DNA of 64,000 nt from Candidatus Aenigmatarchaeota archaeon. Lineage in GTDB: Archaea > Aenigmatarchaeota > Aenigmatarchaeia > CG10238-14 > SCSR01. Numbering within the stretch: the stretch's first letter is position 1; every line of letters begins with the position of its first letter. The stretch covers positions 219,281 through 283,280 of the forward strand of contig JAVZHQ010000001.1 of assembly GCA_038998335.1 (NCBI GenBank). The letters are read 5' to 3'. Shown in pieces: positions 2,625 through 43,715 of this stretch. The notes beneath the pieces were generated by a model, which made no database searches, was not told the DNA's origin, and saw nothing but the letters and a program-made list of their open reading frames with translations. The position numbers were made by a program, and so were the translations under genes.

Positions 2625-3233
2625 ATGAAGCTTTTGACCTCGCCGGTCGAGGCTTTAAAGGAAGCAAAAACAAAAAAAAGTTTTGGTAAAACCATAGGAA
2701 TATTAGTAATTTCAGCAATACTTTTTGGTTTATCTGTAGCAATATTTCCTCTAGGATTTTCAACAACTCCTGTTAGGGCAGTACCAACCTTTTCTACAAT
2801 GACCTTTGCTGTAATTTTTGTAGGTACGTTAATACTTGGTTTATTCTACGGCTATCTAGCAAAGTTAGTAATGAACATTCTTGGAGGTAAAGGGAAGTAC
2901 TTCGAAGGTCTAACGACAATAACCTACTCCATATTCCCCTTTTCTGTAGGTTTATTTATAGTAGCACTACTAAATTACGCGTTACTTCAAGTGCAGCAAA
3001 TAGCCCAATATTATTTGGTAACAATCTTTATCCAAGGGTTTATTCTATCGGTATTTACAGCACTCGGGTTAGCAGTATTTTACAAAGGACTTAACGAACT
3101 TTTCCAAGTGGATATGATAGCTGCATTGGTTGGTGCAGGAATACTTTTCTCAACACTTTGGATTGCATTTTATGGACTAATCTTTAGTTTGATGGGAGCT
3201 TTTATCCCGCTAGTTCCATCGATTAGACCATAA
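2625..3233 (+). CDS. multi-pass membrane protein (Yip1-like, tentative)
   Basis: 202 aa, several hydrophobic segments; flanked on both sides by the palindrome. Confidence 0.35.
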   Translation: MKLLTSPVEALKEAKTKKSFGKTIGILVISAILFGLSVAIFPLGFSTTPVRAVPTFSTMTFAVIFVGTLILGLFYGYLAKLVMNILGGKGKYFEGLTTITYSIFPFSVGLFIVALLNYALLQVQQIAQYYLVTIFIQGFILSVFTALGLAVFYKGLNELFQVDMIAALVGAGILFSTLWIAFYGLIFSLMGAFIPLVPSIRP

Positions 3234-3291
3234 AATCGTAAGCTAATTTTTCCTTTTTCTTTTTTTCAAAAATTTTTAAAGAGTTTTTTTA

Positions 3292-3309
3292 ATGTTAGAC
3301 GTCTAACAT
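3292..3309. repeat. perfect 18-bp palindrome atgttagacgtctaacat (copy 2 of 2)
   Basis: Same 16-bp core as 2571-2586; again T-run before and A-run after. Confidence 0.6.
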
Positions 3310-3333
3310 GGAAAAAAATTTAAGAATTAAAAC

Positions 3334-3341
3334 TTTTAAAA
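3334..3341 (+). promoter_or_regulatory. TATA-box-like element upstream of tRNA-Glu
   Basis: 'ttttaaaa' about 20-25 nt upstream of the mature tRNA 5' end, consistent with archaeal TATA placement. Confidence 0.3.
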
Positions 3342-3359
3342 GAAATTTATTTTAAGGAT

Positions 3360-3434
3360 GCCCCCTTCGTCTAGTCCGGCTAAGGATACGAGCCTTTCGA
3401 GCTCGGGACACGGGTTCAAATCCCGTAGGGGGCA
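3360..3434 (+). tRNA. tRNA-Glu (anticodon UUC)
   Basis: Acceptor gccccct/agggggc, anticodon stem cgagc/gctcg, loop ctTTCga, T-loop ttcaaat. Confidence 0.85.
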
Positions 3435-3497
3435 TGTCCTTTTCAATTTTATCGAATTGTTAAAAAGATTAAAAAAGAAAAATAAAATTTATTATAG

Positions 3498-3830
3498 GTG
3501 AGAGAAATGGGTGCACCAACTTTGTATGTAGTAGATGTGATAAAAAACATTTTATCTTATATTAGCAAGTTAATTCCAAAATCTAAAGTAAGAGTTAACG
3601 AGCTTGGAAGAGGCGAAATATTTTACAAACCAATTATTGGAGAGGAGAGAAAACTTGTAGAAGTTTACGGGACTTCAGAAAGAAGAGGAGAAAGTGTCGG
3701 GAATCATCGAATAGTAGTTGATTTTAAAGATCCATCTTTGAAAGAAGATCCAAAACTTATGGAGTTTCTCTATAAGCAAAAAAAGGAGATTTCTGAGCAG
3801 AAAGAGCCTATAGAACTTGTAATAAAATAG
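3498..3830 (+). CDS. hypothetical protein
   Basis: 110 aa ORF, no recognisable motif. Confidence 0.3.
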   Translation: MREMGAPTLYVVDVIKNILSYISKLIPKSKVRVNELGRGEIFYKPIIGEERKLVEVYGTSERRGESVGNHRIVVDFKDPSLKEDPKLMEFLYKQKKEISEQKEPIELVIK

Positions 3831-3842
3831 TCAAGTTAAAAT

Positions 3843-4361
3843 TTACCATTTTTCATAATGAACTTTCTTTTTTTCAAATTCTTTTTCTGTATGTTCAGGT
3901 TTTTTCTCCGCAGGATAACCTATAGGCATTAAACCAAGAATTCTTACGCTTTTTGGTGCTTTTATAACTTCTCTAACATATTCTTCACTATCTCTCAAAA
4001 AAACAGTTTTCCCTCCCATAATTTGGCAGAAACAAGTACCCAAGCCTTGGTTTGTGGCTTCAAGATAAATGTTTTCAGCAGCTATAGCACAATCTTCAAC
4101 CCAAAATTTTGAAAGAATTCCAGACTTAGCAGCGATGACTAAAACAACTGGAGCATCCTTAACAAAATAGCAAAAAGGTGTAGCTTTTGATAATTTTTCT
4201 TTCGTTTCTTTATCCTTAACGACAATAAATTCCCAAGGTCTTCTGTGCATGGCAGACGGAGCATACATAGCAGCCTTTAAAATTTCTTCCAGCTTTTCTT
4301 TTTCAACTTCTTTTTTCTGGAACTTTCTTATGCTTCTTCTTTTTTTGATAACTTCTAGCAT
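3843..4361 (-). CDS. nitroreductase family protein
   Basis: N-terminal 'RRSIRKF' motif and ~170 aa length typical of the NADH/FMN nitroreductase fold. Confidence 0.7.
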   Translation of the reverse strand: MLEVIKKRRSIRKFQKKEVEKEKLEEILKAAMYAPSAMHRRPWEFIVVKDKETKEKLSKATPFCYFVKDAPVVLVIAAKSGILSKFWVEDCAIAAENIYLEATNQGLGTCFCQIMGGKTVFLRDSEEYVREVIKAPKSVRILGLMPIGYPAEKKPEHTEKEFEKKKVHYEKW

Positions 4362-4507
4362 AAAATTAAATTACCCCTCAAAATTTAATACTTACAATTT
4401 TTTAATTTCAGTCTTTTTCTGGTAATATTGCGTCCTAATTTTATAAGAAATATCAGGAGTTTAACATCAAATTTTTAAGCTTCAATTTTTTAAGAATTAT
4501 TGAGATT

Positions 4508-4888
4508 ATGCCTTTTGTTTACGTTCCTCTTAAAACTTTTCCACGAAGCTTAGAAGAAGCAAAAAAGGAATTAGAAAAGCTCTACGAATGTTTCAAGAAT
4601 TTCATGAGTAAAGACTTTGATTTTATTTCCTGGTTTGAAAACGATTTTGAAAAAGACATCAAAAGCTTAGAGAGTATAAGTGAAAAAATTTCTACCCTTA
4701 CTAAAGAGGGAAAAATTCTCGGAAGACTTGAATACGTAAGAAGAGAGGCCAGAAAACTTCAAGAAGAAAGAGCCAGACTAATCCTAGGCAACTATTATTC
4801 TATTTACTATTCGAGGGCTAAGGAAGTTTTTACTGCTTTTTACAATCTTTTAGATTACTTAAAAGATTTGTTTCAACTTAAAACTTGA
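4508..4888 (+). CDS. hypothetical protein
   Basis: 126 aa ORF, predicted helical, no motif. Confidence 0.3.
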   Translation: MPFVYVPLKTFPRSLEEAKKELEKLYECFKNFMSKDFDFISWFENDFEKDIKSLESISEKISTLTKEGKILGRLEYVRREARKLQEERARLILGNYYSIYYSRAKEVFTAFYNLLDYLKDLFQLKT

Positions 4889-4967
4889 ATTATATCTTTT
4901 GATTCAAAAAATTTTAAATACTTGTTCTTGAATTATTTTTAAATATCGAAGGAGGAAAATCGCTTAG

Positions 4968-5123
4968 ATGACTGAAGTTATAAAAAGTTATTTTAGGGAA
5001 ATGAGCGATTCTCTGATAGAAATCGACTATTCCTGGAATGAAATTTACAGAAAGACTAATCCCTACTCTTACGACGCGCTAGCTTTTTCCCTCGAAAATT
5101 TGGATAAGATGTTTCAGCAATAA
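4968..5123 (+). CDS. candidate small protein (51 aa)
   Basis: ATG preceded by Shine-Dalgarno-like 'ggagga' at 8-nt spacing; below the ORF-track size cut-off; 3' end overlaps the convergent ORF 5114-5581. Confidence 0.2.
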   Translation: MTEVIKSYFREMSDSLIEIDYSWNEIYRKTNPYSYDALAFSLENLDKMFQQ

Positions 5124-5581
5124 TGCTTGCTAACTTGCTCAGGAGCTATCTCACAAGCCACAGAAAGAACTTGAAAACTCTTATCTATAGTAAACTCTTT
5201 CAAACAGACAGTTAAATTTTCATAGTTGAAACAGAATATTTCAAAAGGCATTATAGCTCCTCTACAATTAAAAACGCTTTCAGTTTTCTTGCACACAAAA
5301 TTGGAAAAATAACATACGCTATAATTTTCGGAAATTTTTTCATAACCTATGGGAAAGCCAGAATCCAAACCAGCGTTAGGAAATGTTTCTGTATATTCTT
5401 TTGCTTTTCTAGACAAGAAAGCTTTAATTTCTTTCTCAATAACACAACCCTTCCTTTCTTCTCTTCGAAGATTTAATAAATGAGGATTAAGAGCTATCAA
5501 CCCAACTACCACAAAAATAGAAATAAGTAGAAGCATAGACTTCAAACTTCCTTTAAAAATTTTATTCACCCTTAAGAGCAA
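5114..5581 (-). CDS. membrane-anchored Cys-containing hypothetical protein
   Basis: N-terminal hydrophobic anchor followed by a domain with multiple Cys. Confidence 0.35.
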   Translation of the reverse strand: MLLRVNKIFKGSLKSMLLLISIFVVVGLIALNPHLLNLRREERKGCVIEKEIKAFLSRKAKEYTETFPNAGLDSGFPIGYEKISENYSVCYFSNFVCKKTESVFNCRGAIMPFEIFCFNYENLTVCLKEFTIDKSFQVLSVACEIAPEQVSKHYC

Positions 5582-22193: not shown

Positions 22194-22211
22194 AAATAAA
22201 TTATTAGAAAG

Positions 22212-22297
22212 CCCTGGTAGCTCAGTTGGTTAGAGCGCATAGTTTAGCGTAAGCTTGGTAAGCATGAGGTCCCGGGTTCAAGTCCCGGCCAGGGCTT
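22212..22297 (+). tRNA. tRNA-Thr (anticodon GGU) with a 12-nt intron inside the anticodon stem (22242-22253)
   Basis: Acceptor gccctgg/ccagggc, D-arm gctc-agttggtta-gagc, T-arm ccggg-ttcaagt-cccgg; removing agtttagcgtaa gives a perfect 5-bp anticodon stem catgc/gcatg with loop ttGGTaa. Confidence 0.6.
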
Positions 22298-26222: not shown

Positions 26223-29200
26223 TTATTCTCTCCTCCTCAAATCCTCCAAAATTCTTTTTTCAGTTCTTGCAACTATTTCTCTTACTTTCTTTATTGCATC
26301 GATATTAACTGAAATGCTTGAAATTCCACACTCAACTAAAAACTCAACCATCTCTGGAATATTGCTTGGGGCTTCGCCACAAATTGAACTTTCCACATTA
26401 TACCTATTACAAGTTTTTATTGTTTCTTTTATTAATCTTAATACTGCAGGGTGCATTTCCGAGTAAAGGTTTAATAACTTTGCGTTATTTCTATCTACGC
26501 CTAAGGTAAGCATGGTTAAATCATTAGAGCCAATAGAAGCAAATGCTATTCCTTCTTTACAAAATTCTTCTATGGTTAAAGCACAAGAAGGAACTTCGAC
26601 CATTATGCCAAGCTTACAGCTTTTTGGCAGTCTAACTTCCAAAGCAATTTCTTTTGCTTTCCTGAATTCCTCAACAGAAATTATAAAAGGAAGCATGATA
26701 TGAACATTATCCAAACCTTCTTCATGTAAAGTTTTGATAGCTTCAAACTCTGCTTTGAGTATCTCAGGCTCATCTAAACTTCTTCTTATACCATGCCATC
26801 CAAGCATTGGGTTGTCTTCTTTTGGTTCTGTTTCACCCCCTTCTAGATGTCTTAGCTCATCTGTTCTAGCGTCTAAGGTTCTTACCCATACAGGCTTGGG
26901 ATAAAATGCTTTTGCTATTGGTCTTATACCATCAAGAAGAATTTGAATGTACTCTTCTTTTCTCCCTTCCCTAACAAGTTTTGCAGGGTGTTTCCCTGAC
27001 TTAAGTATCATATGCTCGATTCTTAACAAGCCAACTCCATCAACTTTTTTTGCTATTTCTTCCACACCCTCTGGAAAAACAAGATTAACTTTTATTTGAG
27101 TAATGGTTGGCTTTATCTCTTCTTCCTCTTCTTCTGGAGCTACGATTTCTGGTGTCTCTACCTGAATTATTCCAGGATAAATCAAACCACGATAAGCATC
27201 GACAGTAACTTCTTGTCCATCTTTTAAAACTTTTGTTGCAGCTAAGGTTCCTACTACACAAGGAATTCTCATTTCTCTTGAAACTATTGCCGCATGACAG
27301 TTTGAAACTAATAGAGGAGTGTATTTTTTGGTAAACACAACATAATTTTTATTAACTTCTTCTTCCGTATCAACTTCAAAGTTAAACACTTCTGTTTTAA
27401 ATCTTTCACCAACTTCTTTAACTCTTAACATACTTAGGCTTGAGTTAAGTATTCTTTCGATTTCTTCTTTTTCTCTTCCTTCAAGCAGAGGTAAAATTCT
27501 TTCTCTAATTTTATTTCTATCGATTAAGAGGTTTTTATTCAAATAAGGCTTTATTTTTCCTTTCCAGTTTGCTTTATCTTCCAAACCTTCAAGAACTTGT
27601 TTAGCCGCAAAGAATTTGCTTCCCTTTTTCCTTTCGTCAAAATTTGCTTTAATTCTTTTACATTTTTCCAAAATTTCTTTCACTTTTTCTCCTATTTGAA
27701 CGTTACATATTTCTCTATTTTTTGTTATTTTGGGGATAATTCCTAGCTTTAAACAAGTTATTACTATCCCCCTTAGTAGGTTTTTGTCCGAAACATAAAT
27801 TTGAATTCTATTTTTAGAAATTGTACCATCCCCATCGATAACTCCTGCAAGAAAAGCTAAAGAAGTAGCTTCATCTAAGAGCAAGCACCAAGAAGCTAAG
27901 TGTTGATAGATCTTTTCTAGAATCAAAGCAGGATAAAGTCTGTAAGAAATATAATCACTTACAGTTCCGGTAACCTCTTTTCCTCTTATTTGTGTGTGAG
28001 TTATTTTCTCTTTTTGGCTAAATTCGTAACCAAAAATTTCTTTGAAATAATCTCTAACTGCAGTAATAAACTCAATTTTTGACTCTTCCTCTTTTTGAGT
28101 AAATATCACACAACCTCTTCTTAAGCCTGTCTTACCCTTAAAAATTTTCCAGTAACCGTCAGAAAAAATGCTTCCTACTAAATATCCAAGTTTTTCGTTA
28201 GAAATCTTACATTCAGAATCAGGCAGGCCAAAAGGTACACAAATAGCTAGTTTTTTACTTAAAATTTCTTGAAGTTCTTTTTTAATTAATTCTCTTTTTT
28301 CATAAGTGAAAATTTTATGGTCTGGAGTTATTCTTATGGAATTATCTTTAATCTTTCCGGTTTGTGAAACAGAAACTTCTACAGTTTGGGCAATTCTTCT
28401 AAAGGCTCTTTTAATTCTTCTCCAAATAGGTTGATTTCTTAAGCAGTCAAAAGAAAGAATGTAAACCTTTTCCTTATTCATAACTTTTTCATAGAGTTCT
28501 TCTGCAGTAACGAAACCTTTTGGCGTTAGAAGAAGAGTATCTCCTGCTATGCAGGTTTGTCCTCCGGAATCAGTTATTATAGCTGAACACTTGCTCATAG
28601 TAGGAACCAAATCAGGAGAAGTCATTGTCGTAACTAAAATATCTCCCTTTTCAACTTTATCTATATCCTTTAGGTCTAAAACAATTTTAACAACCCCTGA
28701 AGCTATCCCAGGCGAAACCCCCAAACCCTTAAGAATAGGTTCACCAACAACTTGTATTTCTTCTACTTTTCCTATGGTTGTTATCGCTCTTGTTTGAACT
28801 ATATATATTCTGTTTCTCTCTATGGCAAACTCAATGTCCTGAGGTTTACCGTAATGGTTTTCAAGTATTACTCCGTAATGAGCAAGTTTTGCTATTTCTT
28901 CTTCCGTTAAAATTTGTTTTCCTTTTTTATCTCTTGGAACAGGAATCTCTTCTGTTTTATCAGTAGCTAAATCTCTTACTCGCATAATTTCTTTTAAACC
29001 AATTTTTTTCTCGAGAAGTTTGCCATCTTTTGAAACTATATAAATATCAGGAGTAACTCTACCAGAAACAAGGGTTTCGCCTAAACCCCAACAAGCTTCT
29101 ATAACTATTTTATCTTCCCCAGTTGCAGGGTTAACCGTGAACATTACTCCAGCCTTTTCACTATTAACCATTTTTTGAATAACAACAGCAATGCTAGCAT

Positions 29201-29753
29201 GCCTAAACCCTTGTTTTGCTCTGTAAAAAATGGCTCTAGGCTCATACAAGCTTGCAAAACATTCCTTAACAGCTTGCAAAAGCTCTTTATGTCCTTTAAC
29301 GTTTAAGAAAGAAGCTTGTTGGCCAGCAAAACTTGCTGTTGGCAAATCTTCAGCAGTAGCAGAACTCCTAACTGCAACCAAAGCTAAGTCTCTCCCAGAT
29401 TTTATTATTTCTAGTTCTTTTCCAACTTCGCTATAAGAAAGAGTTTCGTAAGCTTCTATAATTTCATTTTTAATAGTTGCAGGATACTCTTGTGAAAGAA
29501 TAAGCTCTTTTATTTTTTGGGAAGTCTCAAGAAGTTGAGTAGTATTGTCAACATCACACTCTTTTATCAAATTATCTATTAAATCTTTAATTTTGTTAAT
29601 TTCTATAAATTTTTCAAAGGCATTCGTTGTTATTACAAACCCTGGAGGAACAGGAAGTCCAAGCCTTGTCATTTCTCCTAGGTTTGCACCTTTACCTCCT
29701 GCTATACTTAAGGAATCTCTTGAAAGCTCATCAAGCCATTTGATATATTCCAT
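26223..29753 (-). CDS. ppsA: phosphoenolpyruvate synthase, intein-containing
   Basis: N-terminal ATP-grasp region, phospho-His motif 'ITDSGGQT|...|CHAAIVSRE' interrupted by 418 aa, C-terminal PEP-utilising domain; 1176 aa versus ~760-800 aa for intein-free PpsA. Confidence 0.9.
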   Translation of the reverse strand: MEYIKWLDELSRDSLSIAGGKGANLGEMTRLGLPVPPGFVITTNAFEKFIEINKIKDLIDNLIKECDVDNTTQLLETSQKIKELILSQEYPATIKNEIIEAYETLSYSEVGKELEIIKSGRDLALVAVRSSATAEDLPTASFAGQQASFLNVKGHKELLQAVKECFASLYEPRAIFYRAKQGFRHASIAVVIQKMVNSEKAGVMFTVNPATGEDKIVIEACWGLGETLVSGRVTPDIYIVSKDGKLLEKKIGLKEIMRVRDLATDKTEEIPVPRDKKGKQILTEEEIAKLAHYGVILENHYGKPQDIEFAIERNRIYIVQTRAITTIGKVEEIQVVGEPILKGLGVSPGIASGVVKIVLDLKDIDKVEKGDILVTTMTSPDLVPTMSKCSAIITDSGGQTCIAGDTLLLTPKGFVTAEELYEKVMNKEKVYILSFDCLRNQPIWRRIKRAFRRIAQTVEVSVSQTGKIKDNSIRITPDHKIFTYEKRELIKKELQEILSKKLAICVPFGLPDSECKISNEKLGYLVGSIFSDGYWKIFKGKTGLRRGCVIFTQKEEESKIEFITAVRDYFKEIFGYEFSQKEKITHTQIRGKEVTGTVSDYISYRLYPALILEKIYQHLASWCLLLDEATSLAFLAGVIDGDGTISKNRIQIYVSDKNLLRGIVITCLKLGIIPKITKNREICNVQIGEKVKEILEKCKRIKANFDERKKGSKFFAAKQVLEGLEDKANWKGKIKPYLNKNLLIDRNKIRERILPLLEGREKEEIERILNSSLSMLRVKEVGERFKTEVFNFEVDTEEEVNKNYVVFTKKYTPLLVSNCHAAIVSREMRIPCVVGTLAATKVLKDGQEVTVDAYRGLIYPGIIQVETPEIVAPEEEEEEIKPTITQIKVNLVFPEGVEEIAKKVDGVGLLRIEHMILKSGKHPAKLVREGRKEEYIQILLDGIRPIAKAFYPKPVWVRTLDARTDELRHLEGGETEPKEDNPMLGWHGIRRSLDEPEILKAEFEAIKTLHEEGLDNVHIMLPFIISVEEFRKAKEIALEVRLPKSCKLGIMVEVPSCALTIEEFCKEGIAFASIGSNDLTMLTLGVDRNNAKLLNLYSEMHPAVLRLIKETIKTCNRYNVESSICGEAPSNIPEMVEFLVECGISSISVNIDAIKKVREIVARTEKRILEDLRRRE
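27300..28553 (-). mobile_element. intein with LAGLIDADG homing-endonuclease domain inside ppsA
   Basis: Starts 'CIAGDTLLL' (Cys1), ends '...TPLLVSN' followed by extein Cys; LAGLIDADG blocks 'LGYLVGSIFSDGYW' and 'LAFLAGVIDGDGTI'; sits between T and CH of the conserved GG-x-TCHAAI active-site motif. Confidence 0.8.
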
Positions 29754-38754: not shown

Positions 38755-41052
38755 ATGGCAGGGAAAAAAGAAAAATTCGAGAAATTAGTAGAGCTCTTGT
38801 TGGCAAACCCTAAAATCAAGTACCATGAAATACCTACAAACCTCCATTGGACTCTCCGAAAATCTTTTGGTGGAATTAACAACGCAAAAAGAGCTCTGAG
38901 GTTAGACGCTTACATCTCAAAAACTTATAGTTCAAAACTTCCAACCCCAGAGGAGGTAGATAAAAATTTTGCTGAACTAACAGAGAAGCTAGGAAGGCAT
39001 CCTACTTATGAGGAGTTTTACGAACATTTTCCTTCTTCCTATTACGTGATTAGAAAAGGCTTATATCCTAACGTTAAAAGTTGGAAAGAATACATTAGAA
39101 GTAAGGGTTACGAACCTTATGATAATAGAGGGGTGATTTCTGACGAGCAGATAATTGAGCTTATAGAAAGAGGATTGAGTGATGCTGAAATTGCAAGAAA
39201 ATTAGGAAGAATCACAAGAAAAGGTGTTGCCTACAGAAGAAAAAAATTAGGATACCCTCCTTTTTCAAGGAAAAAATTTACTGACGAACAATTGGAAGAG
39301 GCTATAAAGAAAAGTGGAAGTTATTCTGCAGCTGCAAGGCTTCTAGGAGTAAACTCTAGTAGTTTAGCTGAAAGAGCAAAGAAAAAAGGTATAGAATCGC
39401 CTTATATCAAAAGAGTTCATCCAATTAAAAAATTTTTAAAGGAACAAGGCCCTTCTTTAGGTTCTGAAATCATTGCTGCGGTTGGAAACTTTAACGTGGG
39501 AAGATGGGTCTTATACGAAGGTAAAGACGTATGCTCGTTTCGCATACCAGGATATAAAAGCAAATTATATTTTCTAAAAGGACAAGAAGAGGAAGCAAAA
39601 AAGAAGAAAATTTTTTATATAAACAAAAAAATTGAACCTCTTTTAGAGTTTATTAAAGCTAACCCAGACTGTACACGTACAAGAATAAGAAAAGAGGGGT
39701 TTGACAGTATTATTCGTTCATGCTTTGATGACTCTCTGGATAAGGCAAAGATAATTCAAAGGTGTATCCAGTTAGGCAGGAGGGATTTAGCCAATCAACT
39801 ATTACAACAAATTAAAAACTTAGACCTGAAAGATATGGAAACGTTAGTTTCTTTGTACCAAAATGAAGCGCAAAACCAAGAAGAGGATGTAAAAATTGAA
39901 TATATAGACGTTTTAAGAGAGCCTAGCACTGCAAGAATCTATACAGAATCTACAGAAACAGAAATTGGAGACATTTTACCAAAAAAGCATTTTAAAGGAA
40001 GAAGGGTTATAGTAAAAGGTTTGAAACAAGCTGAAATGCCTAAAGAAATACCAATTTTATTAAGACTGGAGAGAGCGAAGAATACAATAGATTCGTACTT
40101 TATTCATAAAAAAGAATTGGAAGGAAAGGAAGAATACCTAAGAGAAGGCTATAGAATAACAAGAGCTTATCAAAGTAGTTATAGATTATTACAAAACTTG
40201 TTGAATTTGGAAGAATTAGAAGGGAAAACAGTTTTAGACTTAGGATGCGGCTCAAATTCTCCTTTAATGCAAGTCTTAAAAGACAAAAAAATTAACGCCA
40301 ATGTTGTTGGGTTAGACAGCCACAAAAAATCTTTACAGATTTGTAAAGAAAAATTTTCTGAGAATGAATTTATTCAGGGTTTATATCCCTACACTCTTTT
40401 CAGCTTCAGAAGCAACAGTTTTGATTGGATTTTTGCGATAAATTGTTTGCATTACACAAATGAAAAATCTGAAATTTGTGCAACATTAATTGGTTTAGAT
40501 CAGTTACTGAAGAAAGGTGGAAGAATTGTAATAATCGAACCAAGGTCTCAATCTAAGATGAAATTCAATGCTGAATTGAAGAAAAACCTTAGTGAGATGG
40601 GTTATAATGTAGAAGAGTATAATAAATATATAAAGTGGCCAGGACCACAATACTCTCATCATCTAATTCTGGTAGGCGAAAAAATAAATGAGGTAGATAG
40701 GAGTCAGGAGTATAAAAAGGCTATTGCAGCAAGTTTGATTAAAACAAACAGGTTTGAGGAAGCTAAGAAGATTGTTGAAGATTTGGGATTAACGCTAAGT
40801 GACATAATTAAGGAGAAAGAGAAAGAAATGGTATGCATCAGAAAGCCAGAAATAAGAAAAGTTTACAAAGAACCTAAGAGAGTTTTCAGTTTTGAAGAAA
40901 ACCTTAAACTATATTCTCTGATAAAAATGGTTAAAACTACAAAGATATATTCGAGAGATTTAGCAGAAAAAATGTTTGATAAGATTTTCAATTATTATTT
41001 TCAAAAAACCGAAAAATTAAAAAAATTTCGTCCTTACGTTGGTTCAAGGTAA
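38755..41052 (+). CDS. HTH-repeat plus class I SAM-dependent methyltransferase protein, paralog B1 (unknown function)
   Basis: 765 aa; tandem HTH-like repeats ('LSDAEIARKLGRITRKGVAYRRKKLG', 'SGSYSAAARLLGVNSSSLAERAKKKG'); MTase motif I 'VLDLGCGSNSP', then 'VVGLDSH' and 'FDWIFAINCLHY'. Confidence 0.5.
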   Translation: MAGKKEKFEKLVELLLANPKIKYHEIPTNLHWTLRKSFGGINNAKRALRLDAYISKTYSSKLPTPEEVDKNFAELTEKLGRHPTYEEFYEHFPSSYYVIRKGLYPNVKSWKEYIRSKGYEPYDNRGVISDEQIIELIERGLSDAEIARKLGRITRKGVAYRRKKLGYPPFSRKKFTDEQLEEAIKKSGSYSAAARLLGVNSSSLAERAKKKGIESPYIKRVHPIKKFLKEQGPSLGSEIIAAVGNFNVGRWVLYEGKDVCSFRIPGYKSKLYFLKGQEEEAKKKKIFYINKKIEPLLEFIKANPDCTRTRIRKEGFDSIIRSCFDDSLDKAKIIQRCIQLGRRDLANQLLQQIKNLDLKDMETLVSLYQNEAQNQEEDVKIEYIDVLREPSTARIYTESTETEIGDILPKKHFKGRRVIVKGLKQAEMPKEIPILLRLERAKNTIDSYFIHKKELEGKEEYLREGYRITRAYQSSYRLLQNLLNLEELEGKTVLDLGCGSNSPLMQVLKDKKINANVVGLDSHKKSLQICKEKFSENEFIQGLYPYTLFSFRSNSFDWIFAINCLHYTNEKSEICATLIGLDQLLKKGGRIVIIEPRSQSKMKFNAELKKNLSEMGYNVEEYNKYIKWPGPQYSHHLILVGEKINEVDRSQEYKKAIAASLIKTNRFEEAKKIVEDLGLTLSDIIKEKEKEMVCIRKPEIRKVYKEPKRVFSFEENLKLYSLIKMVKTTKIYSRDLAEKMFDKIFNYYFQKTEKLKKFRPYVGSR

Positions 41053-41834: not shown

Positions 41835-43715
41835 CTAATCTATTCGTAACCTAGGTAAGCTTTTTATATATTCTCTCAATTTTTGTTCATACTTTTCTTT
41901 TGCTTCTACATACTCCTTCTGTGCTTCCTCATAGATTTTTTGTGCTGAAAGACCTAAAAGTCTTGCCAGATTTCCTAAAGAGACAATTATTGTATCTGTA
42001 GGCCAACCTAAAAATCCATCTCTCCTTCTTATTTTCTCTTGTAAATCTAACATGATTTTGTGGGTTTTTTTCCATGAGATATAATGATTTGCAGCAAGAT
42101 TTTTTACTTCGTTCATAGAAATCATCCAAGGATATTTTCCTTCTTCTCTATATTCAAATAAGTCCATTATAAAATCTTTACATCTCTGATCTTCAGGATA
42201 TGTTTGAAGCCATTTTTTAAGTTTTGCTAGCAATTTCTTATGAGTTCTTACAAAAATTTTGGGTGGTTTGAACTTTGGTATTCTTATTTTCTTCTCAACA
42301 TCTATACCTTCTAATTCTTCTATTTTTTTGAAATAATCTTTTAAAGTATGGTTATAATTTTCCGCGATTTCATACGCACGAAGCAAATACATGGTTTTTT
42401 CCTCAGCATCACTTCTGTTTTTTGCAGCTTTAAGATAACTCATTCCAACCCCTTTTACATAAGAGTTAGTCTTATCAGTTTGAAGTGTTTTTTCAGCTAT
42501 TAACAGATAAAAATAGGAAGGTTTCAAACCAACCCAATCAACTTTTAGCCTTTTCTCATGAAGGTTGTAGCTTAGACTTTCTAAATATTGTTTGGTTTCT
42601 AAATGACTTACTTTTTGAGATCTTGGATGAACTATGAAAAATTTTCCCCCTTTTTTAAGGAGCTGGTGTAGACCAGCTAAAGTAGCATATTTCTCGATTC
42701 TGTTGTTAAAATGCATAGAACATACAGCAAAAATGTAATCAAATGCATTATCAACAAAAGGAAGGGTATAAGGAAAATTTGCTTGTAAGTAGTTTTGTTT
42801 AGGAAATGTTTCCTTACTAAGCTTGAGGAATTTTTGGCAATCGTCCAAACCAATTACTTCAGCTTTTATGCCCTTTTTCTCAATTACATCTATCAAGGGA
42901 GACTTACATCCACAACCCAAATCCAAGATTGTTTTTTCGTTCAATTCTTCCGGATTTATATAAGTCTCGAACAAATCAAGAAGAAGTTTATATTCTGACA
43001 TAATTGGCTTTGAATTTACTATAATTTCTGCTACTCTTATATCGATATTTTTTGCTTTATCATGAAATTCCAAACTATCTCTCACTTTTTTCATCCATCC
43101 AACTACTTTCATAATTTCTGCAGGACCTATAGAAACTTCACCAGCTTTTAGTGGTCTTAAAACATAAGATTTTGCCCTTCTTCTTCCAACTTCTCTCCAC
43201 GCTTCAACTTCTGCCTCCATGTCTTTTGTATAAGTGTAGTGTTTACGGAATATTCTATTAAAGCCTCTTTTTAACCTCTTTCTTTCATTTCTCTCAGGAA
43301 TTTTTTCGATAAGTTTATAGAAGTCAAAAATCATTTCGAGACCGTGAGCAGAAGGAAATCTAGGAATTTCTTGGTGTAAATAATTTGCTATTAAATCTCG
43401 AATTGGTTTAGCTATGTAGATAACAACCTCTTCTGGAACTTTTTCTGTTTTTGGAAATAGCACGTTTGTTATATCGTCAAGAGTAGAAAATTTTAAGTAT
43501 CGAAAAATAAGCTCAGAAATAAGAGTTTCTTGGTCTTCTTTCAGGTTTGACAAGTTAAGAACTTTCTTGCTATATCCCCTTACAATAGAAGGAAGATTAC
43601 TCCTTAAAACTGCATATATTTCTCTAACTTTTTCCTCGTCTCTGATTAAATGCTCTATCTCATCTTTATAGATTTTCATTATCGTTTTGGGAAGACTTTT
43701 CAATTCTTTTCGCAT
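41835..43715 (-). CDS. class I SAM-dependent methyltransferase protein, paralog B2 (unknown function)
   Basis: 626 aa; 'ILDLGCGCKSP', 'VIGLDD', 'FDYIFAVCSMHF', 'KKGGKFFIVHPRSQ' parallel B1 motif for motif. Confidence 0.5.
   Translation of the reverse strand: MRKELKSLPKTIMKIYKDEIEHLIRDEEKVREIYAVLRSNLPSIVRGYSKKVLNLSNLKEDQETLISELIFRYLKFSTLDDITNVLFPKTEKVPEEVVIYIAKPIRDLIANYLHQEIPRFPSAHGLEMIFDFYKLIEKIPERNERKRLKRGFNRIFRKHYTYTKDMEAEVEAWREVGRRRAKSYVLRPLKAGEVSIGPAEIMKVVGWMKKVRDSLEFHDKAKNIDIRVAEIIVNSKPIMSEYKLLLDLFETYINPEELNEKTILDLGCGCKSPLIDVIEKKGIKAEVIGLDDCQKFLKLSKETFPKQNYLQANFPYTLPFVDNAFDYIFAVCSMHFNNRIEKYATLAGLHQLLKKGGKFFIVHPRSQKVSHLETKQYLESLSYNLHEKRLKVDWVGLKPSYFYLLIAEKTLQTDKTNSYVKGVGMSYLKAAKNRSDAEEKTMYLLRAYEIAENYNHTLKDYFKKIEELEGIDVEKKIRIPKFKPPKIFVRTHKKLLAKLKKWLQTYPEDQRCKDFIMDLFEYREEGKYPWMISMNEVKNLAANHYISWKKTHKIMLDLQEKIRRRDGFLGWPTDTIIVSLGNLARLLGLSAQKIYEEAQKEYVEAKEKYEQKLREYIKSLPRLRID

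Follow-up and report, generated by a model that had tools for sequence, protein, structure and literature searches.

Inteins are known in the phosphoenolpyruvate (PEP) synthase PpsA of methanogenic archaea. The 'Mja PEP' intein of Methanocaldococcus jannaschii in InBase is presumably inserted at the same PpsA site as the element described here, and it has a penultimate Phe and has reportedly been shown to splice. NCBI names WP_007044344.1 an 'intein-containing phosphoenolpyruvate synthase [Methanotorris formicicus]', and inteins of RtcB and of prokaryotic PEP synthases have been found to cluster together and to have similar insertion sites (Gallot-Lavallee et al. 2023; PMC10710043). Functional inteins lacking the usual penultimate His are established (PMC4031507 and PMC7664689, which both cite Chen, Benner & Perler 2000) and account for about 5% of functional inteins (PMC4031507), and the His of the conserved block F is dispensable in some inteins (PMC4031507, PMC7664689). 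Here we describe a 418-residue insertion in the ppsA gene of a hot-spring Candidatus Aenigmatarchaeota archaeon of the DPANN group (assembly GCA_038998335.1), found in a stretch of 64,000 nucleotides (contig JAVZHQ010000001.1, positions 219,281 to 283,280 of the forward strand) that was analysed as a whole and is referred to as the window. The insertion is very likely a class-1-type intein with an embedded two-motif LAGLIDADG homing endonuclease.

The ppsA insertion and its empty allele

The minus-strand open reading frame (ORF) at 26223-29753 encodes a ppsA precursor of 1176 residues with one intein, and its frame is intact over 3.5 kb. The N-extein (28554-29753; PpsA residues 1-400) ends in ...ITDSGGQT, the intein (27300-28553; 418 residues, 1254 nucleotides) comprises precursor residues 401-818, and the C-extein (26223-27299; residues 819-1176 and the stop codon) starts with Cys+1-His+2. 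With slashes marking the splice junctions, the upstream junction reads ITDSGGQT/CIAGDTLLLT in the protein and GGA GGA CAA ACC / TGC ATA GCA GGA GAT in the DNA, and the downstream junction reads KYTPLLVSN/CHAAIVSREM and TTA GTA TCA AAC / TGT CAT GCG GCA ATA GTT. The codons that frame the intein are TGC for Cys1 (28551-28553), TCA for Ser417 (27303-27305) and AAC for Asn418 (27300-27302), followed by TGT for Cys+1 (27297-27299) and CAT for His+2 (27294-27296). The insertion separates Thr400 from the Cys-His that follows it in the phosphohistidine domain, the swivelling domain of PEP synthase, and His+2 is the phospho-carrier His of the PpsA motif GGxT[CS]HAAI. A first-pass annotation made from the letters of the window had placed a 418-residue insertion at 27300-28553 between the Thr and the Cys-His of this motif, starting with Cys (CIAGDTLL) and ending in LLVSN before the extein Cys; ORF mapping found the position correct to the base, and both ends can be read directly from the junction DNA.

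The precursor matched the profiles NF005057 (871 bits) and TIGR01418 (829 bits) for PEP synthase (pyruvate, water dikinase), each split into two stretches. Among the Pfam domains PPDK_N, PEP-utilizers_C and the mobile domain PEP-utilizers, the last was likewise found in two stretches, the second of which begins where the intein ends (residues 818-856; it covers positions 34-72 of the 72 in the profile). Removal of the intein in silico gave a PpsA of 758 residues that matched NF005057 in a single stretch with 895.5 bits (profile positions 5-794 of 798) and aligned to the solved PEP synthase 8a8e with no gap across the junction ('tdeggrtshaaivsrelgipcvvgt'). From these profile matches we identify the host protein of the intein as PEP synthase, and the window protein, as an intein-containing PEP synthase, very probably provides the gluconeogenic PEP-forming step in this Aenigmatarchaeota genome. 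In NCBI, the window PpsA (MEM5793803.1) is merely named 'PEP/pyruvate-binding domain-containing protein' and its intein-free relatives are named phosphoenolpyruvate synthase. It appears that the intein has blocked the specific name. The strand opposite the intein has short ORFs only (42-82 residues), Rfam has no matches within the intein, and a six-frame search of the 64-kb window found no further inteins of the same family.

Among the very close PpsA homologues found with the spliced exteins as query, some have the insertion and others lack it. The intein-free PpsA of another Ca. Aenigmatarchaeota genome (P0111; 758 residues; positions 3001-5277 of locus L034, assembly GCA_044343625.1) is 92% identical to the spliced window protein and shares the window ppsA neighbourhood (SHMT, ThyX, AAA_18 kinase, ribosomal L16/L10e, ppsA). 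Its empty site reads ...GGAGGACAAACT/TGTCATGCAGCAATAGTT..., and the window minus exactly 1254 nucleotides reproduces this site at 84 of 90 nucleotides. Compared with the empty allele, the insertion is thus precise. The polymorphism extends to seven genomes with PpsA exteins that are 90-96% identical, four of which carry the intein (the carriers include P0113, P0115 and P0116) and three of which do not (P0111, P0112 and P0114). The exteins of P0116, with the intein, and of P0114, without it, are 96% identical.

Intein blocks, endonuclease domain and fold

Intein blocks A, B, F and G can be read on the minus strand, and their conservation was assessed in a family alignment of 21 sequences (the window intein and 20 full-length relatives). 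Block A (28515-28553; intein residues 1-13, CIAGDTLLLTPKG) begins with Cys1 as the first nucleophile, and all 21 members share C1, T10 and G13. Block B (28305-28340; residues 72-83, SIRITPDHKIFT) has T76-P-D-H79, matched by 'TPDH' in an alignment with the NrdJ-1 intein, with H79 invariant and T76 conserved in at least 90% of the members. Block F (27333-27392; residues 388-407, EVFNFEVDTEEEVNKNYVVF) has Asn391 and Lys402, with V389 and N391 invariant; it was assigned by profile alignment of the family sequence 'VyNieV..nhnY' to 'VYDLSVEDNENF' in PI-PkoII and 'VYDIEVEHNHNF' in the Spl DnaX intein. Block G (27300-27320; residues 412-418, TPLLVSN) ends in Ser417 and Asn418, and P413, V416 and N418 are invariant. 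The model TIGR01445 (intein_Nterm) scored 34.5 bits over intein residues 1-83 and so exceeded its cut-off of 24.5 bits.

The splicing domain is interrupted by a LAGLIDADG homing endonuclease domain at approximately residues 108-300 (27654-28232), which is supported by its secondary structure and by matches to I-DmoI, and for which selection is described below. Both LAGLIDADG motifs named in the first-pass annotation are present. Motif 1 (block C; 28155-28190; residues 122-133, LGYLVGSIFSDG) reads LGYLVGSIFSD132-G and can be aligned with the first motif of the I-DmoI/I-CreI chimera, with Y124, G127 and G133 invariant and the acidic D132 conserved in at least 90% of the members. Motif 2 (block E; 27825-27860; residues 232-243, LAFLAGVIDGDG) reads LAFLAGVIDGD242-G, and D240-G241-D242-G243, including the acidic D242, is invariant. 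In Pfam, the intein matched LAGLIDADG_3 (9.3e-10; residues 231-280, which cover motif 2) and Hom_end (1.2e-5). As a whole, the intein signal lies far outside chance expectation.

An AlphaFold2 model of the intein, built on the family alignment, had a pLDDT of 93 and a pTM of 0.91, with lower model confidence in the helical residues 300-370 that follow the endonuclease domain. The top Foldseek matches in the PDB were PI-PfuI (1.3e-19), TliVMA (TM-score 0.70), PI-PkoII, PhoVMA and PI-SceI, followed by I-DmoI, which matched the endonuclease core with E-values of about 1e-9 to 1e-10 and a TM-score of about 0.69 normalised to the target. The modelled endonuclease has two copies of an alpha-beta-beta-alpha-beta-beta-alpha arrangement, and the splicing domain has the HINT fold, as seen in the AlphaFold model and in the matches to full-length inteins. 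The solved intein endonucleases PI-PfuI (1dq3), TliVMA and PhoVMA (7qss, 7qst), PI-PkoII (2cw7) and PI-SceI (1vde) have the same fold and domain order as the window model (Foldseek E-values of 1e-19 to 1e-12), and PI-PkoII was also matched by the family sequence profile (3.8e-9). They differ from the window intein in having only 10-19% sequence identity to it and in being inserted in other host proteins at other sites.

With Cys1, a block B Thr-x-x-His and a C-terminal Asn followed by Cys+1, the intein has the features of class 1. The penultimate His (G:6), the block F Asp (F:4) and the block F His (F:13), which are typical of this class and not obligatory, are missing. A class 2 (KlbA) intein is ruled out by the Cys, not Ala, at position 1, and a class 3 intein, which would have the Trp-Cys-Thr triad with a Cys at position 4 of block F, by Asn391 at F:4. 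The first-pass annotation had called the insertion an intein rather than a PpsA domain without intein blocks, and its reading holds: blocks A, B, F and G, both LAGLIDADG motifs and the syntenic intein-free allele rule out a lineage-specific PpsA domain.

Same-site family and C-terminal splicing residues

Searched exhaustively with HMMER, 1.84 billion cluster representatives yielded 98 relatives of the intein, compared with one match from a word-indexed protein search. Thirty-five of the relatives had E-values below 1e-30, and the best one (2e-126) is inserted at the same PpsA site. Besides the window and P0031, more than 50 PpsA sequences have the insertion at this point, with the junctions GGxT/C...N/[CS]HAAI. 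Members of the family are also found in PPDK (N/SHAAVVARGMG; P0008, P0036, P0051 and P0054), in archaeal RtcB (GST/C...N/CHGAGR; P0012, P0017, P0019 and P0037) and, 12 residues further downstream in PpsA, at a second site (GIP/C...KN/CVV; P0025 and P0045). These non-allelic sites in different enzymes have in common a T/C-H junction or one like it. Of the 38 representatives with an aligned C-terminal end, 27 have Cys and 11 have Ser at +1.

P0031, which lies in the 90% cluster of the M. formicicus protein, aligns to the window intein end to end (window residues 1-418 against residues 399-807, E-value 7e-45) with the junctions GGLT/C...IVVFN/CHAAI. The statement that an intein at this ppsA site is already known in Methanococcales is therefore supported. 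The two inteins share the host protein and the insertion point, a HINT domain with a two-motif LAGLIDADG endonuclease of about 410 residues in all, the lack of a penultimate His and an Asn at the position of the block F Asp. They are, however, only 31% identical; the M. formicicus intein has a penultimate Phe where the window intein has Ser, it keeps the block F His (NHNY) where the window intein has Lys (NKNY), and its host is a methanogen, whereas the window host is a DPANN archaeon. The archaeal RtcB inteins are 34-40% identical to the window intein, have a similar site (GST/CHGAGR compared with GGxT/CHAAI) and have a penultimate Lys, again not His, but they are in a different host protein and their relatedness is non-allelic. 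By sequence similarity, the window intein can be assigned to the known PEP synthase intein family and to the wider cluster that includes the RtcB inteins. Its own features are modest: it is found in a DPANN host, has Ser at G:6 and Lys in place of the block F His, and is 31-49% identical to the 20 aligned relatives, all of which had been clustered earlier. This bears out its description, in the first-pass annotation, as an informative marker rather than a novelty.

Further members were sought in a scan of GTDB species genomes, which detects only loci matching [ND][HK]NY[VI][VI]FT[KSN]. The hosts of loci L008-L033 are mostly ultra-small lineages of the episymbiont type, and include Aenigmat-, Woese-, Nano-, Pace- and Micrarchaeota among the DPANN archaea, Paceibacter, Liptonbacteria, Saccharibacteria and Levyibacteriota among the bacterial candidate phyla radiation, and also Aerophobetes and Methanosarcinales. 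This distribution, taken from a scan with one peptide pattern rather than a census, suggests that the intein family has been transferred between domains. Shortened inteins are found at the PpsA site in P0061 (residues ~406-686, ~281 residues) and L026 (331 residues), and the cyanobacterial RtcB relative L030 is also short (341 residues). P0061 has lost the LAGLIDADG acidic residues, which represents the degeneration stage of the homing cycle. Some PpsA homologues (P0007, P0011, P0015 and P0045) contain an additional unrelated intein in the SSATAEDLP/S motif of the ATP-binding domain; in the window PpsA this motif is uninterrupted (SSATAEDLPTASFAGQQ).

The first-pass annotation had noted a penultimate Ser in place of the usual His, with a possible effect on the chemistry of C-terminal cleavage. 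The Ser is present, but the lack of His is a family trait, shared by the PpsA, PPDK and archaeal RtcB members examined. None of the 38 representatives has a penultimate His (S in 13, N in 8, K in 6, G in 4, A in 3, and R, E, Y and F in 1 each), and neither does any of 28 further PpsA/PPDK loci in GTDB species genomes, which add D and L. Within the alignment of 21 sequences, position 417 has nine residue types and is never His. Because this position is hypervariable between the invariant P413, V416 and N418, the alignment argues that the side chain at position 417 would have no catalytic role in the family. In a sub-clade with a four-residue acidic insertion in block F, the penultimate Ser is nearly constant. 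The usual block F Asp is Asn391 in the window intein and an invariant Asn in all 21 aligned members, and the block F His is kept in 16 of the 21 and is Lys402 in the window. In contrast, an Asp stands at the position of the family Asn in both PI-PkoII and the Spl DnaX mini-intein, and Spl DnaX has the block F His where the window intein has Lys. The window intein contains only three His residues (79, 186 and 218), none of them in the C-terminal splicing segment. It shares with class 2 (KlbA-type) inteins the Ser at G:6, and C-terminal cleavage in that class is independent of the block F His (PMC4031507). Unlike class 2 inteins, which have Ala as their first residue and omit the first acyl shift, it starts with Cys1, and it is no KlbA orthologue. 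The resemblance to class 2 is at the C-terminal junction only.

It might be that C-terminal cleavage in the family needs no His of the intein, possibly by borrowing the phospho-carrier His of the host at +2. Every member located directly before C/S-His (in PpsA, PPDK and archaeal RtcB; more than 60 sequences) is without a penultimate His. The cyanobacterial RtcB relatives L027, L028 and L030 (25% identity) keep the penultimate His (YCS/C...VLVHN/CSHGAGR), and their insertion precedes the archaeal RtcB site by one residue, so that the host His is at +3. This correlation with the register of insertion is suggestive. The idea is nevertheless improbable, because the contrast is a single independent one and because P0025, at the second PpsA site with Val at +2, is also without both histidines and provides a counter-example.

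Homing, splicing and alternative readings

The GTDB scan also found five Aenigmatarchaeota metagenome-assembled genomes from hot springs (L003-L007) whose inteins are 74-76% identical to the window intein. Between the window and L006, the exteins are 92% identical (as is the N-extein alone) and the inteins 74%, with a synonymous divergence (dS) of about 1 for both. The ratio of nonsynonymous to synonymous divergence (dN/dS) was 0.04 in the exteins, the N-extein included. In the intein it was 0.15 overall, with 0.14 and 0.09 in the two parts of the HINT domain and 0.16 in the endonuclease. All these values are approximate because a dS of about 1 is close to saturation. To judge from its dN/dS of 0.16, which is similar to that of the splicing domain, the endonuclease domain is under purifying selection and not decaying.

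Two of these loci, L003 (JAWBPV01) and L007 (JAVZHJ01), with the intein gene at 3001-4257 in both, have inteins with 99% amino acid identity and a dS of 0.03, in exteins that are 87-92% identical with a dS of 1.7-2.1. At the upstream edge of the intein, the nucleotide identity between them rises abruptly from about 0.78 to 1.00, and past the downstream edge it fades within the C-extein over a stretch of about 50 codons, like a co-conversion tract. This indicates a very recent horizontal homing event between the L003 and L007 lineages, which were sampled from different hot springs. Identities of inteins and hosts are also discordant in the clade with 90-96% identical exteins: its four inteins are just 65-75% identical to one another, and they are 71-79% identical to the L003/L007 intein, though the L003 and L007 exteins are only 70-71% identical to those of the clade. 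Together, presence or absence of the intein and the discordant identities are signs of the classical homing cycle of invasion, fixation, loss and re-invasion. The intein lineage is thus recently mobile, as seen in relatives and not in the window copy specifically. The GC content of the intein (0.31) is below that of the exteins (0.35-0.36), but the GC content at third codon positions (GC3) is 0.21 in both, and a recent foreign origin on grounds of composition was rejected. The difference comes from amino acid content and not from codon usage, and composition therefore says nothing on a recent arrival.

We propose that the 1176-residue precursor would be inactive before splicing, because a 48-kDa domain is wedged into the swivelling domain immediately ahead of the catalytic His. 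Cys1 would undergo an N-S acyl shift to a thioester, aided by T76 and H79 of block B; Cys+1 would then attack the thioester and take over the N-extein in a branched intermediate; Asn418 would cyclise and release the intein without the canonical helper residues (which here are Ser417, Lys402 and Asn391); and an S-N shift would yield a normal PpsA of 758 residues with ...GGQTCHAAIV... at the junction. The spliced PpsA would hold the tryptic junction peptide ...GGQTCHAAIVSR. Once excised, the intein would presumably act as a two-motif LAGLIDADG endonuclease of the monomeric type, which would cut intein-less ppsA at the highly conserved sequence that codes for the active site, and repair of the cut would copy the intein into the empty allele (homing).

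We infer, from sequence and model, both the actual splicing of the window copy and DNA cleavage by its endonuclease, and several observations weigh against this reading. The Pfam model Intein_splicing matched with 8.4e-8 and 32.6 bits, slightly under its gathering cut-off of 35.8 bits, and no model of the C-terminal splicing region is listed in the NCBIfam scan of the precursor. The three usual assisting residues are replaced (block F Asp by Asn, block F His by Lys and penultimate His by Ser), the dN/dS values have the limit given above, and no near-identical copy of the window intein was found in other genomes, the closest being 76% identical, so that recent transfer is documented in relatives and not in this copy. 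If the three replacements had abolished splicing, ppsA would be dead or repurposed, and DPANN genomes are reduced and often without complete central metabolism. Such a loss is extremely improbable: the exteins are under strong purifying selection, the frame is undisturbed over its whole length, the obligatory nucleophiles are kept (Cys1 and Asn418 in all 21 aligned members, and Cys or Ser at +1 in 38 of 38), and many independent lineages have these same replacements in an otherwise conserved PpsA. Inteins without a penultimate His are, moreover, known to splice (PMC4031507). The intein could also splice conditionally, in response to redox state via Cys1 and Cys+1 or to temperature, and act as a post-translational switch on gluconeogenesis. 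Its location directly at the catalytic His, which means that the precursor must be inactive, and the two Cys nucleophiles at the junctions of the window copy fit such a switch, and with neither His available, C-terminal cleavage might proceed slowly and depend on temperature. But nothing in the sequence points to regulation in particular, and the conservation of the endonuclease target already explains an insertion at the active site. With Ser at +1 in 11 of the 38 representatives, a Cys1-Cys+1 disulfide cannot be a feature of the family, and the intein is dispensable, because relatives with 90-96% identical exteins do without it. We consider conditional splicing very improbable.

It is unlikely, though a possibility of some weight, that the intein splices with an inactive endonuclease and is a fixed passenger that no longer homes and persists only because its precise deletion from an essential active-site codon would be rare. 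The closest relatives of the window intein are 72-76% identical, which leaves it with no near-identical counterpart in another genome, degenerate short inteins exist at the same site (P0061 and L026, above), and the equal GC3 of intein and exteins means that the intein is either long resident or fully ameliorated. An endonuclease domain in decay would, however, be expected to have a dN/dS of about 1 and not 0.16. In addition, D132, D242 and the invariant glycines are intact, the intein has its full length of 418 residues, and sister lineages both vary in the presence of the intein and include divergent hosts whose copies are 99% identical. A class-1-type intein whose endonuclease is functional remains the reading that we prefer.

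These findings leave the understanding of inteins unchanged. The presence or absence of the intein, together with a near-identical intein in hosts whose divergence is saturated at synonymous sites, forms a natural data set on the homing cycle in uncultivated DPANN archaea from hot springs. The family is also a natural series of active-site variants, with Asn in block F, either His or Lys at the block F His and 11 different penultimate residues, never His, and this series can be used for asking how Asn cyclisation proceeds without the canonical histidines.

Elsewhere in the window, two large proteins are encoded at 38755-41052 (plus strand, 765 residues) and 41835-43715 (minus strand, 626 residues), in which Pfam sees only a central SAM-methyltransferase domain and has no matches in the long flanks. 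The tRNA gene at 22210-22297 (plus strand) scored 52.4 bits with the Rfam tRNA model, and its anticodon arm has 23 nucleotides, compared with 11 in the model. ARAGORN gave it an impossible four-base anticodon, 'ttag', and the gene probably encodes an intron-containing archaeal tRNA.

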